Source of the DNA: Clostridia bacterium
Lineage (GTDB): Bacteria > Bacillota > Clostridia > Oscillospirales > CAG-272
Direction of reading: 5' to 3'
Assembly (NCBI GenBank): GCA_017522795.1
Contig: JAFWXZ010000047.1
Span: 99 to 64,098, forward strand
Length of the DNA: 64,000 nucleotides
The translations under genes were made by a program, and so were the position numbers. Below, piece after piece: positions 35,905 through 39,802 of the stretch. The notes under the pieces are model-generated. The model did not search any database. It was not told where the DNA came from and worked only from the letters and a program-made list of their open reading frames with translations. Position 1 is the first letter of the stretch. The number at the start of each line of letters is the position of its first letter.

Positions 35905-35933
35905 TTGACAATACGGCTCGAATATTGTATAAT
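35905..35933 (+). promoter_or_regulatory. Sigma-70-type promoter (extended -10) of the oxidoreductase/AcnX operon
   Basis: TTGACA, a 17-nt spacer, then TGtATAAT. Confidence 0.55.
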
Positions 35934-35969
35934 TAATGCATAAAAATTTTATTGAAAGGAATAGATACT

Positions 35970-38039
35970 ATGGCTAACATAGATCCTAAGTACGAGGCCC
36001 TGTTTACCCCTTGGAAAATAGGCAACGTAGAGATCAAAAACCGTATCGTTATGTGTCCTATGGGCGGTACGTCGCTGTTCGGTTGGTTTGAGCTGACCGG
36101 CTGTGGCTTTGACAAGGAGGCGGCAAAGCTTTTCCTTGAGCGAGCAAACAACAACGTAGGTCTTATTATCCCAGGTATCGCTCCCCTGCGCGACACCTTC
36201 TGGGGTAAATGGCTTTGGCAGAATCCCAAGATGTTCGAGGAGCTTAAGGTATTTATGGATGAAATCCATAAGACAGGTGCAAAGCTCTTTGTTCAGCTTA
36301 CCGCAGGTATGGGACGCTCCTGGGCTATCACCGAGCTTGTAGGCCCTCTCCACAAGAACAAGGTCACAAGAGCGCTTATCAAGCCCATTCTTGACACAAG
36401 TCACGAGCTGGCATCTCCCTCCGAGCAGCCTGCCCGCTGGGCGCCCGACATTATATGCCCCGAGATGACCAAGGAGCAGATTCACGAGATCATTGAGGCA
36501 TTCGCAAAGACTGCAAAGCTCTGCATGGATGCAGGCGTTGACGGCGTTGAGGTTCACGCGGTACATGAGGGCTATCTTCTCGACCAGTTTGCAATAGAGT
36601 TCTTCAACAAGCGTACCGACGAGTACGGTGGAAGCTTTGAGAACAGATACCGCTTTGCAGCAGAGGTAGTTAAGGCTATCAAGGCAGAGTGTGGCAAGGA
36701 CTTCCCCGTTTCGCTCCGTTACTCTGTTGAGTCTAAGATGAAGGGCTTCCGCGTGGGCGCAGTTCCCGGTGAGGAATACACCGAGGTTGGACGTACCATG
36801 GAGGAATCCGAGAGAGCCGCAAGATATCTTCAGGATGCAGGATACGATATGCTTAACGCCGACAACGGTACTTACGACTCTTGGTACTGGGCGCATCCCC
36901 CGATGTATATGCCCCAGAACTGTAACCTCGAGGACGTAGCGCACATCAAGAAGTTCGTTGACATTCCCGTAGTATGCGCAGGCCGTATGGAGCCCGAGGT
37001 TGGAGCTGCGGCTATTGCTGAGGGCAAGATCGACGGCGTTGGCGTGGCAAGACAGTTCCTTGCTGACGGCGAGTGGATCACCAAGCTTATCGAAAACAGA
37101 CTTGAGGACATCAGACCCTGTATCTGCTGTCACGCCGGCTGCTTCAATTTCTCCTCCTCCAAGGGACACTATAACACGCAGGATCTTACCGATACGATGG
37201 GACTTGCGCGTTGCGCGATCAATCCCCAGACCATGCAGTCGAAGAAGTATTACGTTAAGCCCGCGAAAAAGAGAAAGAGCGTTGCCGTTGTTGGCGGCGG
37301 TATCGGCGGTATGGAGGCCGCTATTCTCCTTGCAAAGCGCGGTCACAGCGTGACTATCTTCGAGAAGAGCGACAAACTTGGCGGCGTATTTATTGCTGCG
37401 GCCGCTCCCTCCTTTAAGGAAAAGGACCGCGAGCTTATCGCCTGGTACAGACGCGAGGTTGCAAAGCTTCCTATCGAGGTCAAGCTTAACACCGAGATCA
37501 AGGACATAAGCTTTATCAAGGCTGACGAGATAATTATTGCAACGGGCGCTACCGCGAAGAGAATTCCTATTCCCGGCGCGGAAAATGCAGTTGAGGCAGT
37601 TGACTACCTTCTTCAGAACAAGACGGTTGGCGAGCGCGTAGTTGTTATTGGCGGCGGACTTACAGGATGCGAGATCGCTTATGACCTCTACCTCCAGGGC
37701 AAACAGCCTACCATCGTAGAGATGCAGGACGATCTTATCACCACCCCCGGTGTTCCGCTGGCAAACACCTCCTTCCTTCGCGATTTCTTCAATGCAAATC
37801 AGGTGCCCGTACATCTTGAAACAGGTGTAAAGGAGATCAAGGACGGCGCGGTTGTTATCGCGGATAAGGACGGACACACAAGCGAGATCGAGTGCGACTC
37901 CGTAATCCTCTCGGTCGGCTACAACCCTGCACCTCTTGCAAAGAAGTCAAAGCACGTTCACGTTATCGGCGATGCGGCAAGCGTTGGCAATCTCAGAACA
38001 GTTATCTGGGGCGCATGGAACGTAGCTATGAAGATTTAA
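35970..38039 (+). CDS. 2-enoate reductase / 2,4-dienoyl-CoA reductase family flavoprotein (OYE TIM barrel + 4Fe-4S + FAD/NAD(P) domain)
   Basis: The OYE-like N-terminus is ...IKNRIVMCPMGG... The Cys cluster is CICCHAGC...C. The dinucleotide folds are VAVVGGGIGG and VVVIGGGLTG. An RBS AAAGGAA precedes ATG 35970. Confidence 0.8.
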   Translation: MANIDPKYEALFTPWKIGNVEIKNRIVMCPMGGTSLFGWFELTGCGFDKEAAKLFLERANNNVGLIIPGIAPLRDTFWGKWLWQNPKMFEELKVFMDEIHKTGAKLFVQLTAGMGRSWAITELVGPLHKNKVTRALIKPILDTSHELASPSEQPARWAPDIICPEMTKEQIHEIIEAFAKTAKLCMDAGVDGVEVHAVHEGYLLDQFAIEFFNKRTDEYGGSFENRYRFAAEVVKAIKAECGKDFPVSLRYSVESKMKGFRVGAVPGEEYTEVGRTMEESERAARYLQDAGYDMLNADNGTYDSWYWAHPPMYMPQNCNLEDVAHIKKFVDIPVVCAGRMEPEVGAAAIAEGKIDGVGVARQFLADGEWITKLIENRLEDIRPCICCHAGCFNFSSSKGHYNTQDLTDTMGLARCAINPQTMQSKKYYVKPAKKRKSVAVVGGGIGGMEAAILLAKRGHSVTIFEKSDKLGGVFIAAAAPSFKEKDRELIAWYRREVAKLPIEVKLNTEIKDISFIKADEIIIATGATAKRIPIPGAENAVEAVDYLLQNKTVGERVVVIGGGLTGCEIAYDLYLQGKQPTIVEMQDDLITTPGVPLANTSFLRDFFNANQVPVHLETGVKEIKDGAVVIADKDGHTSEIECDSVILSVGYNPAPLAKKSKHVHVIGDAASVGNLRTVIWGAWNVAMKI

Positions 38040-38081
38040 ACTGTAATTTGACAACCATACTTTACAAAAGGAGTAAATATT

Positions 38082-39356
38082 ATGCGACTTACTGCTCATC
38101 AGCAGGAAATGCTTGACGGTAAATATGGCGAGACTAAAGCCAAGGTTATGAAAACGCTGGTAATGTACGGCGAGACCTTTGGCGCTGAGGATATGGTAGC
38201 TGTGACAAGCGAGTACAACCACCTTGTCACCTCCTTCGGCCTCAAAGTAATGTCCCCCGTATACGATCTTATGCAGAGACTCGTTGACGACGGTGTGGCA
38301 TCCGAACAGAAGTTCTCTATGGACCCCCGCCCTCTCGACAAGAACGTTCCCGCAAGCTTCCTTCAAAATTTTGTATTCAATAAATTTATGTATACCAAGC
38401 AGGATACATATGAAAAGCAACTGGAAAAGCTCGGCCTTATGAACAAGGACGCTTTCACCTGCACCTGTTATATGGACGAGGTAGGAAACAAGCCCAAGAT
38501 GGGCGATATCCTCTCCTGGTCGGAGTCCTCGGCGGTAGTTTACGCCAACTCGGTTCTCGGCGCGAGATGCAACAGAAACTCGGGAATTATGGACATTATG
38601 GGCTCTATCGCAGGCTACGTTCCCAACTTTGGTTTGCTGACCGACGAGGGCAGACGCGCTACCTGGATCATCAAGGTTGAGACCACGAAGAAGCCCGATG
38701 CGCAGCTCCTCGGCTCTGCTATCGGTATGAAGGTAATGGAGGACGTTCCCTACGTTTACGGCCTCAATCAGTATCTTGGCAGCGAGCTTGACGATGCGGC
38801 TTGTACATATCTTAAGGACTTCGGTGCGGCTACCGCATCCAACGGCGCGGTTGGTCTCTATCATATTCACGATCTTACCCCCGAGGCAAAGCTCCACGGT
38901 GAGAAGCTTATCGCTGAGGGCGCGCCGGTTTACGTTATTGACGATGCTGAGCTTCAGCGCGTTAAGGACAGCTATCCTGTAATCTGGAAGAATCCCGATG
39001 CCACTCCCAAGCTCTGCTTTATGGGTTGTCCCCACATGAGCCTTGAGCAGCTCAAGAGCTGGACTGACAAGGTTGAGGCGGGACTCAAGGCAGCGGGAAA
39101 TAAGGAGGTAGTAATACCCACAGTATTCACCGCAGCACCCGCAGTGCTCGCTGAGTTTGAGAGGACCGAGTATGCGGCAAGACTTAAGAAGTGCGGAGTT
39201 ATCACATCCTATATCTGTCCTCTGATGTATATGAATAACCCCCTCTGCAAGACCATGCCTGTAATCACCTCGTCCAACAAGCTTCGTACTTATACAAGCG
39301 CAAAGTATCTCTCGGACGACGAGATACTTGTAACAATTACAAAGGGAGGTAAGTGA
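38082..39356 (+). CDS. Aconitase X catalytic subunit (DUF521 family)
   Basis: 424 aa with MRLTAHQQEMLDGKYGE...LVMYGETFGAE... and a GCPHMS box typical of DUF521. Confidence 0.8.
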   Translation: MRLTAHQQEMLDGKYGETKAKVMKTLVMYGETFGAEDMVAVTSEYNHLVTSFGLKVMSPVYDLMQRLVDDGVASEQKFSMDPRPLDKNVPASFLQNFVFNKFMYTKQDTYEKQLEKLGLMNKDAFTCTCYMDEVGNKPKMGDILSWSESSAVVYANSVLGARCNRNSGIMDIMGSIAGYVPNFGLLTDEGRRATWIIKVETTKKPDAQLLGSAIGMKVMEDVPYVYGLNQYLGSELDDAACTYLKDFGAATASNGAVGLYHIHDLTPEAKLHGEKLIAEGAPVYVIDDAELQRVKDSYPVIWKNPDATPKLCFMGCPHMSLEQLKSWTDKVEAGLKAAGNKEVVIPTVFTAAPAVLAEFERTEYAARLKKCGVITSYICPLMYMNNPLCKTMPVITSSNKLRTYTSAKYLSDDEILVTITKGGK

Positions 39357-39358
39357 TA

Positions 39359-39802
39359 ATGCGTAAGTTTAAAGGCAGAATAATCACTCCCGGTACTGCA
39401 AAGGCGACCGCTGTAGTCACCCACGGTGGCTTTAACACCCTGGCATCTATGCAGATGGGCCTTCAGTTCGGTGACAAGCAGGTAAAATGCTCTGATCAGT
39501 CTAACCCCGAGATATACAAGCTCCCCCTTGCGGGCTCGGCACTTTGCCTGCCCCAGACCATCGGCTCTACAACGGGCGGCCTCGTTCTCTATTGCGCCTG
39601 CGCTATGGAGCGTCAGCCCGCGTGTATGCTCTTCTCCAAGTCTATCGACAGCCTTGCAGCTGCGGGATCTATCCTTGCATCGGTATGGCTTGACGGCATC
39701 AAGATGCCCGTTATCGACAATCTTGGCGACGAGTTCCTCGAGTACGTAAAGAACGGTATGACCGTCACCGTCGAAGAGGACGGCACGGTAGTCGTTGAGT
39801 AA
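39359..39802 (+). CDS. Aconitase X swivel-domain subunit (DUF126 family)
   Basis: 147 aa starting MRKFKGRIITPGTAKATAVV..., with GGAGG 9 nt upstream. The start region overlaps the stop of the large-subunit gene, suggesting translational coupling. Confidence 0.75.
   Translation: MRKFKGRIITPGTAKATAVVTHGGFNTLASMQMGLQFGDKQVKCSDQSNPEIYKLPLAGSALCLPQTIGSTTGGLVLYCACAMERQPACMLFSKSIDSLAAAGSILASVWLDGIKMPVIDNLGDEFLEYVKNGMTVTVEEDGTVVVE

Follow-up and report, generated by a model that had tools for sequence, protein, structure and literature searches.

The 64,000-nt window analyzed here (contig JAFWXZ010000047.1 of assembly GCA_017522795.1, from a ruminant-gut Clostridia bacterium), whose numbering is used for all positions unless another locus is named, contains an operon (35905-39851) that couples a putative 2-enoate-reductase-type iron-sulfur flavoenzyme to the two subunits of an aconitase X (AcnX). 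It consists of three tightly packed, co-oriented genes on the forward strand (35970-39802), enclosed by one promoter and one terminator. The sigma-70 promoter, TTGACA-17-TATAAT (35905-35933), matches the consensus at 12 of 12 positions and precedes the gene for the 689-aa flavoenzyme (35970-38039, ATG at 35970), in which a flavin mononucleotide (FMN) barrel of old yellow enzyme (OYE) type is followed by a four-cysteine motif and domains for flavin adenine dinucleotide (FAD) and NAD(P)H. The AcnX large-subunit gene (DUF521, PF04412; 38082-39356, 424 aa) has a Shine-Dalgarno sequence, AAAGGAG (38069-38075), 6 nt before its ATG at 38082, and is followed by the gene for the small (swivel) subunit (PF01989; 39359-39802), which encodes 147 aa from an ATG at 39359 or 149 aa from a GTG at 39353. 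The ATG is the more likely start, since it lies 8 nt downstream of a ribosome-binding site (GGGAGG) and matches the start of a homolog, MR(K/Q)FKGR. It leaves a gap of 2 nt between the two AcnX genes, whereas the GTG would produce a 4-nt start/stop overlap; the genes are tightly coupled whichever start is used. An intrinsic terminator with a 14-bp stem and a T run (39820-39851) directly follows the last stop codon and also faces a convergent flotillin gene, which flanks the operon on one side, with a divergent pair of ABC exporter genes on the other. The initial annotation had described a single promoter ahead of an OYE/4Fe-4S/FAD enzyme, followed by DUF521 and DUF126 genes and without a transporter or regulator in the operon. 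The promoter match, open reading frames (ORFs) and Pfam domains agree with this description, and the gene calls in the window place no transporter or regulator on the transcript; the overlap it reported between the DUF126 start and the DUF521 stop holds for GTG 39353 but not for the likelier ATG 39359. Opposite the reductase and AcnX genes run two gene-length antisense ORFs (35949-37877 and 37947-39035, reverse strand) without any Pfam hit, which recur as ORFs in orthologous loci and are shadows of the real genes caused by codon usage.

The two AcnX subunits are encoded by adjacent genes and both exceed the gathering cut-offs of their Pfam models, the large subunit with 310.9 bits against 31.5 for PF04412 (1.4e-92) and the small subunit with 34 bits against 27 for PF01989. 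Their closest solved relative is the archaeal enzyme TkAcnX: the large subunit aligns with 7cnr_A at 2.2e-39, compared with about 1e-16 for type I hydroxyproline dehydratase, and the small subunit aligns with 7cnr_B at 4e-4, with the GST motif in register. Profile alignment, in which the PDB chain index of AtAcnX is offset by 10 from the numbering of the corresponding paper, pairs Cys127, Cys316 and Cys379 with Tk Cys110, Cys283 and Cys342 (sites A, 1 and B). Similarly, the large-subunit residues Glu148-Ser149-Ser150, Lys400 and Tyr404, together with the small-subunit GSTT motif that holds the general-base serine, align with their counterparts in the solved AcnX structures (7cnr, 7cnp), whose residue roles and cysteine sites have been assigned previously (PMC8184944, PMC10040528). 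The iron-sulfur ligand and catalytic positions are invariant or nearly so in 80 orthologs. The pair thus has a cysteine pattern in the style of type IIb enzymes, which predicts a [4Fe-4S] cluster.

Neither of the two characterized AcnX activities fits this pair. A role as hydroxyproline dehydratase was ruled out by the score of the large subunit against the model for this enzyme (NF051439), which reaches 139.2 bits against a cut-off of 700, and by the loss of type I landmarks: the amine-binding Asp203 of AtAcnX is replaced by Val49, which is invariant in the gut clade, Ile206 corresponds to Phe52, and the position of Cys510, the third type I cysteine, is not a cysteine (ICPL). A role as mevalonate-5-phosphate dehydratase was ruled out by the replacement of the type IIb phosphate contacts, with Tk Gly48-Val49-Ser50 becoming Val49-Thr50-Ser51, Asn53 becoming Leu54 and Asn79 becoming Asp81, and by a separate position in the AcnX tree. 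Membership in the archaeal mevalonate pathway is also at odds with the occurrence of AcnX in only 12 of 36 congeners and with its 2-enoate-reductase partner, in a genome that was not searched for other genes of that pathway. In a tree of representatives, anchored via PDB scores and drawn without type IIa sequences, the window protein falls into a well-supported gut clade within a 28-sequence group, apart from the group of about 390 residues that holds the type IIb-like sequences; no NCBIfam model that separates type IIb-like relatives was found. The best 120 homologous proteins listed are all more than 91% identical, and the matches in the ESM Atlas comprise only the protein's own family. With its place in the tree, the gut clade would fit the uncharacterized IIc-IIf subclasses of Watanabe et al. 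as a group, without a particular letter. Its presumptive substrate-binding loop, HLVTSFGL, is invariant in the 80 orthologs, and hydrophobic residues (Val49, Phe52, Leu54) stand where the solved enzymes contact the polar tail of their substrates, followed by an aromatic-rich insert at residues 91-104.

The flavoenzyme has the modular architecture of the 2-enoate-reductase (2-ER) subfamily. Pfam identifies Oxidored_FMN at residues 17-383 (6e-54) and Pyr_redox_2 (2e-37), Pyr_redox and NAD_binding_8 at residues 442-667, so that an FMN barrel leads via a four-cysteine motif to a domain with two dinucleotide folds for FAD and NAD(P)H. Its best solved relatives are 2-naphthoyl-CoA reductase (NCR; 6qkg, 1.8e-60, over the full length) and the 2,4-dienoyl-CoA reductase FadH (1ps9, 5e-56). 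The CICCHAGC...C motif aligns with the [4Fe-4S] cluster cysteines of FadH, the OYE-type His...His...Tyr signature is kept, and the tyrosine of HAVHEGYL aligns with FadH Tyr166 in the SEGYL motif (OYE1 Tyr196), the catalytic proton donor in this family (PMC11759058). The protein is an unassigned member of the subfamily, as its scores fall well short of the curated cut-offs for BaiCD (NF041087, 373.6 versus 825) and the long form of bilirubin reductase (NF045599, 365.8 versus 750). A role in bile acid metabolism was considered, as BaiCD is the best NCBIfam match and an amidase of the bile salt hydrolase (BSH) family lies near some loci, and was rejected, given that the score is far below the cut-off and the hydroxyls of bile acids are not beta to the carboxylate.

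The association of AcnX with this reductase is conserved far beyond chance. We sampled 80 loci, one per GTDB species genome, with AcnX proteins 71-90% identical; by the titles of their records, they belong to Oscillospiraceae, Acutalibacteraceae, Lachnospiraceae, Christensenellaceae and others and come from gut samples of goat, sheep, deer, buffalo, chicken and human. The reductase gene was part of the AcnX cassette in 70 of the 76 evaluable loci; 68 loci had it directly upstream of AcnX, at a median distance of 26 nt, one had it upstream beyond a 1-kb spacer and another had it downstream. The spacer, seen in one species (L038:6010-7000), contains no sizeable ORF. No fourth conserved gene emerged around the sampled cassettes, where only shadow ORFs and low-frequency neighbors were found.

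The two enzymes are also inherited together. Among 60 relatives of the source organism (36 congeners and 24 genomes of other families in the order), AcnX is patchily distributed, occurring in 12 of the 36 congeners and 5 of the 24 other genomes. A reductase ortholog (at least 55% identity) is present in exactly the same 12 congeners and in four of the five AcnX-positive genomes of other families, the exception being a genome whose AcnX is a fragment at the end of a contig; the 43 AcnX-negative relatives all lack such an ortholog, and four of them have paralogs of 33-44% identity. Moreover, in each of the five genomes whose AcnX pair is unlinked, a reductase of 68-85% identity is encoded at another site, next to uninformative neighbors (DUF1846, an ABC exporter, DsbD/redoxin, argininosuccinate synthase, nitroreductase). 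In one of the congeners with unlinked AcnX (G009; L033:6123-7472), an FAD oxidoreductase of the DAO family with a C-terminal Rieske domain is encoded directly upstream of AcnX, whose ORF remains open for a further 170 codons upstream.

More distant AcnX proteins are likewise paired with members of the 2-ER subfamily. In locus L114 (GCA_045540355.1; 4713-8748), an AcnX 59% identical to that of the window adjoins a non-orthologous 757-aa 2-enoate reductase with 28% identity, which is the only 2-ER at E <= 1e-20 in this 3.1-Mb genome; the gut-clade reductase is absent. In L123, an AcnX with 44% identity adjoins a reductase with 36% identity. A phylogeny of the reductases places the gut-clade enzymes, whether linked to AcnX or not, in a single clade (support 100/100), and the AcnX-linked reductases of L114 and L123 outside it, among unlinked paralogs, so that these two were likely recruited independently. 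Given the maintained linkage, the co-occurrence in its absence and the exchange of the partner within the same enzyme class, AcnX and the reductase very likely share a pathway. There are also hints that the cassette spreads horizontally, as it shows variable flanks and an AcnX identity of 71-90% across families, and as genes for a large serine recombinase (L102:2904-4589, reverse strand) and a tyrosine integrase (L065:3907-4890, forward strand) lie directly upstream of two cassettes.

We consider it probable, with moderate confidence, that the three genes form one operon, whose products reductively dehydroxylate a free carboxylic acid at the beta position in two CoA-independent steps. Both characterized AcnX enzymes act on a free 3-hydroxy acid, from which they take the C2 proton and eliminate the C3 hydroxyl to yield a 2-enoate (PMC8184944), and it is because 2-enoates are the defining substrate class of 2-enoate reductases that we read the pair as a dehydratase followed by a reductase. 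This reaction class, from 3-hydroxy acid to 2-enoate, is independently supported for the AcnX group, since other members adjoin genes for 3HCDH (3-hydroxyacyl-dehydrogenase-type), BKACE, SDR and acetoacetate-decarboxylase-family (ADC) proteins, which act on 3-hydroxy or 3-oxo acids. For the first step, the chemistry of the family and the residues that are conserved suggest that the heterodimeric AcnX, most likely with a [4Fe-4S] cluster on Cys127, Cys316 and Cys379, would dehydrate the 3-hydroxy acid to the 2-enoate. The carboxylate would be held by Ser149, Lys400 and Tyr404 of the large subunit and by the threonine next to the catalytic serine of the small subunit; this serine would take the C2 proton, and the free iron the C3 hydroxyl. 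In the putative second step, electrons from NAD(P)H would pass via FAD and the [4Fe-4S] cluster to FMN and saturate the C2=C3 bond, with the His pair of the reductase holding the carboxylate and the tyrosine donating a proton. The net reaction would convert a 3-hydroxy acid and NAD(P)H into the saturated acid and water, which could serve a fermenting gut anaerobe as an electron sink or as a means of acid salvage or detoxification. No gene for a CoA ligase, CoA transferase, crotonase or acyl-CoA dehydrogenase is found in the cassette. The initial annotation had arrived at the same two-step scheme on the grounds that characterized AcnX enzymes are dehydratases, both of which do indeed make 2-enoates (PMC8184944), and it had proposed to assess the conservation of the adjacency and the phylogenetic position of AcnX. 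The linkage, co-occurrence and residue patterns support its scheme as far as computation goes: the reductase belongs to the cassette in 70 of 76 species loci and in most relatives of the window's order, and the AcnX pair forms a tree group of its own instead of clustering tightly with the hydroxyproline dehydratases, an outcome that, combined with unrelated substrates of the flavoenzyme, would have spoken against the scheme, or with type IIb.

As for the substrate, the class that we regard as the leading candidate, with a likelihood approaching that of an even call, is a lipophilic 3-hydroxy acid, either of the 3-aryl-3-hydroxypropionate type or a 3-hydroxy fatty acid, which may be liberated from conjugates of the amide or ester kind. 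The hydrophobic tail residues, the likeness of the substrate loop to that of another AcnX protein (P0133) and the accessory genes of some cassettes all lean in this direction. The loop most similar to HLVTSFGL is HVVTSMGM of P0133, whose AcnX pair belongs to a LysR-controlled unit with an MFS symporter and adjoins the 3-carboxyethylcatechol 2,3-dioxygenase MhpB (470 bits, cut-off 291), a meta-cleavage-type hydrolase and an aromatic-ring hydroxylase, and thus lies in a catabolic island of the phenylpropionate/cinnamate type. In the gut clade, a MarR gene is located directly upstream in about 10 cassettes. A membrane-anchored Ntn amidase (CBAH/AAT family) is encoded in four cassettes, which take an extended form with MarR (L107:3060-8721, L109:3196-8733, L104:3390-8043, L087:86-3037), and three others encode, co-directionally with the trio, DUF5058, a membrane protein with four helices and an M20 amidohydrolase anchored in the membrane (L090:2799-9690, L095:3366-10167, L102:4894-11779). 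The recurrence of two unrelated families of anchored amidases suggests that the acid is released extracellularly from amide conjugates. Two cassettes also contain DegV fatty-acid-binding proteins, one a GDSL lipase between reductase and AcnX, one MarR together with an iron-containing alcohol dehydrogenase and an aldehyde dehydrogenase, and a few MatE. Those among them with a lipid flavor would suit 3-hydroxy fatty acids and aromatic acids alike. Less probable as a substrate, on a par with some class not listed here, is an amino- or ammonio-3-hydroxy acid (carnitine, 4-amino-3-hydroxybutyrate, beta-hydroxy amino acids), and polar di- or tricarboxylates (malate, citramalate, citrate) appear less probable again. 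One such polar option, the conversion of citrate or trans-aconitate to tricarballylate in the rumen, is retained, with no supporting genomic context and no gene-level account in the literature found.

Several points weigh against this interpretation. The functions of the AcnX and reductase clades are predicted from sequence comparison, and we infer both the order of the steps and the direction in which the gut cassette operates. Related genomes are not independent, so that co-occurrence counts such as the shared 12 of 36 congeners overstate the number of independent events and are descriptive, not statistical, and the independent recruitment of the L114 and L123 reductases is read from a tree whose deep branches are long and poorly resolved. 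Most cassettes, including that of the window, have no accessory genes, and the hints on the substrate, drawn from a minority of loci, diverge: an ABC importer of the amino acid type faces three cassettes, peptidases lie near some relatives, and a TRAP permease precedes one unlinked AcnX pair. Finally, cinnamic acids are already 2-enoates, so a dehydratase would be unnecessary if they were the true substrate pool.

One unlikely alternative assigns the cassette to the metabolism of beta-hydroxy amino acids. AcnX would dehydrate a 3-hydroxy-2-amino acid, such as 3-hydroxyproline, 3-hydroxyaspartate or one of the threonine/serine type, to an enamine or imine, which the flavoenzyme would then reduce to the amino acid in place of pyrroline-2-carboxylate reductase. 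The sole characterized bacterial AcnX enzymes perform such a dehydration and are followed by a reductase (PMC8184944), a threonine of the small subunit corresponds to At Thr72, a contact of the ring nitrogen, and the 2-ER family includes enzymes that act on C-N bonds (TMADH, histamine dehydrogenase, N-methylproline demethylase). The peptidases and amino-acid-type importers near some cassettes and relatives point the same way. However, the amine-binding aspartate is an invariant valine throughout the clade, the hydroxyproline dehydratase model scores at 139 bits against a cut-off of 700, no hydroxyproline genes lie nearby in the window or the sampled cassettes, and the reductase scores nearer to BaiCD, BilR, NCR and FadH than to amine dehydrogenases of the TMADH type.

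Equally doubtful is the idea that AcnX works as a hydratase, acting on a 2-enoate that the flavoenzyme produces by dehydrogenating a saturated acid, or as an isomerase that makes one isomer accessible to reduction. AcnX reactions are reversible, with the mevalonate-5-phosphate enzyme (PMDh) having been assayed in the hydration direction (PMC10040528), and classical enzymes of the aconitase family are isomerases (PMC8184944). For the relatives located beside 3HCDH, BKACE or SDR plus ADC genes, the most plausible role of AcnX is that of a hydratase supplying an oxidation. Yet the gut-clade cassettes are accompanied by no downstream dehydrogenase or cleavage gene, and the characterized ene-reductases of the 2-ER type act reductively. 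Moreover, on general thermodynamic grounds, NAD(P)+ is a very unfavorable oxidant for turning a saturated acid into an enoate, which counts against this direction in strict fermenters.

A further possibility arises from the clade that is sister to that of the window in the AcnX tree (P0132 and P0141, 98% support). In two JGI metagenome contigs from a pyrrolysine-using anaerobe (L123:4584-9781, L124:2470-14503), an operon of mtbB(Pyl), 2-ER, AcnX large subunit and AcnX small subunit lies between sigma-54 activators; the operon, whose mtbB gene encodes a dimethylamine methyltransferase with a TAG at codon 349, is surrounded by MttB genes, one with a TAG at codon 328. This island of trimethylamine and dimethylamine methyltransferases ends with a gamma-aminobutyrate transaminase scoring above its equivalog cut-off and would be consistent with a pathway that degrades carnitine, gamma-butyrobetaine or some other amino acid that is methylated. 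The second context (L132:3710-10878 and L133, GCA_028285445.1) is a unit that combines AraC with a 3HCDH dehydrogenase, a permease for amino acids, a 603-aa fusion of the large and small AcnX subunits, a hydrolase and SnoaL; a BKACE gene in divergent orientation and S9 peptidases lie close by. We take this gene set to resemble the carnitine genes cdhR/cdhCAB of Pseudomonas aeruginosa, but the L132 dehydrogenase and BKACE proteins score below the cut-offs of carnitine-specific models. Carnitine or a demethylated 4-amino-3-hydroxybutyrate would fit both members of the sister clade.

By extension, the window cassette might convert L-carnitine, or 4-amino- or 4-methylamino-3-hydroxybutyrate, via crotonobetaine to gamma-butyrobetaine without CoA and thus be a non-homologous counterpart of CaiABCD. 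This notion, for which the contexts just described speak, seems slightly more remote than the previous two. The window clade is not the sister clade, and because the substrate loops differ, with HFVIAHAI and HFSISGST in place of HLVTSFGL, the substrate of one cannot simply be transferred to the other. In addition, none of about 95 gut-clade cassettes adjoins a BCCT- or OpuC-type transporter or a methyltransferase, the carnitine-specific models are missed even in L132, and the hosts of the cassettes are mostly herbivore-gut species, with carnitine being scarce in plant diets. That AcnX and the reductase are neighbors without a shared pathway, for instance as a mobile pair of unrelated accessory genes, is highly improbable and already disfavored: flanks do differ between genomes, a recombinase or integrase does adjoin the cassette in two loci, and the proposed enzymatic link is drawn from genomic comparison, but the two genes co-occur without linkage in five of five genomes, match exactly in presence and absence within the genus, and AcnX retains a 2-ER partner even when this partner is a different paralog.

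Within the aconitase superfamily, AcnX is the branch about which least is understood, with two activities known and types IIc-IIf left unassigned in 2021, and one of its subclasses now gains a fixed enzymatic partner, a clear reaction hypothesis and an evident assay. The cassette occurs in at least 80 species genomes from gut, rumen and caecum; should a dietary or microbial acid be its substrate, the cassette would account for a reductive transformation and electron sink that are widespread and have no genes assigned to them. It would also represent a CoA-free alternative to the logic of hydroxyacyl-CoA dehydratase and enoyl-CoA reductase that could serve biocatalysis, and the sister clade, with its surroundings of the methylated-amine and carnitine type, has implications for the formation of gamma-butyrobetaine and methylamines in the gut. 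It is possible, though we would put this forward only as a tentative and rather unlikely proposal, that the cassette mediates an unrecognized, CoA-independent "reductive beta-dehydroxylation" of an abundant gut metabolite in many gut Clostridia, such as 3-aryl-3-hydroxypropionates or 3-hydroxy fatty acids released extracellularly from amide conjugates by the anchored amidases of some cassettes, with the sister-clade pair making gamma-butyrobetaine from carnitine without cai genes. In that case, AcnX types IIc-f would receive a first assigned function, and 2-enoate reductases a physiological role that is new to them.

The enzyme families to which the components of the operon belong are known; this AcnX subclass, the reductase clade and their pairing are uncharacterized. 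The initial annotation had not been aware of a description of the pairing, and our full-text literature searches found no paper that reports one. Among established systems, the best solved relatives of the AcnX pair are the type IIb mevalonate-5-phosphate dehydratases (TK1249/TK1248 of T. kodakarensis, 7cnr/7cns, and PMDh of A. pernix). They share with it the two-subunit organization, the three cysteine sites, the Glu-Ser-Ser, Lys and Tyr residues and the Gly-Ser-Thr motif of the small subunit (PMC8184944, PMC10040528), and the same class of reaction, from 3-hydroxy acid to 2-enoate, would be expected. In contrast, the window AcnX is about 40 residues longer, has lost the phosphate contacts and belongs to a separate tree group. 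It is a bacterial, accessory and patchily distributed protein, whose partner is an ene-reductase instead of a pathway decarboxylase. Type I hydroxyproline dehydratases follow a similar logic, with dehydration by AcnX preceding an NAD(P)H-dependent reduction, and use the same catalytic Ser, Glu, Lys and Tyr (PMC8184944). The window AcnX differs from them in that it lacks an equivalent of Cys510 and instead has a type IIb-style cysteine in GCPH, carries Val and Phe in place of Asp203 and Ile206, and cooperates with a reductase from another family (OYE/Fe-S/FAD) outside any hydroxyproline gene context.

The reductase, in turn, has its three-module architecture, four-cysteine motif, tyrosine and OYE-like His pair in common with the clostridial 2-ERs and their relatives (FldZ/Enr, FadH, NCR, BaiCD/BaiH and long BilR). 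It differs from these enzymes in scoring below every curated equivalog cut-off and in forming a clade of its own, found only in genomes with this AcnX, in a comparison that covered the named enzymes apart from the FldZ/Enr sequences. The conversion of a hydroxy acid via an enoate to a saturated acid by CoA-dependent routes is an established electron sink in anaerobes, exemplified by the CaiABCD system of E. coli, which turns carnitine into gamma-butyrobetaine. The operon described here would achieve the same net chemistry as CaiABCD or the combination of a hydroxyacyl-CoA dehydratase with an enoyl-CoA reductase or acyl-CoA dehydrogenase, but with unrelated enzymes that are expected, like the characterized members of the AcnX family, to act on free acids.

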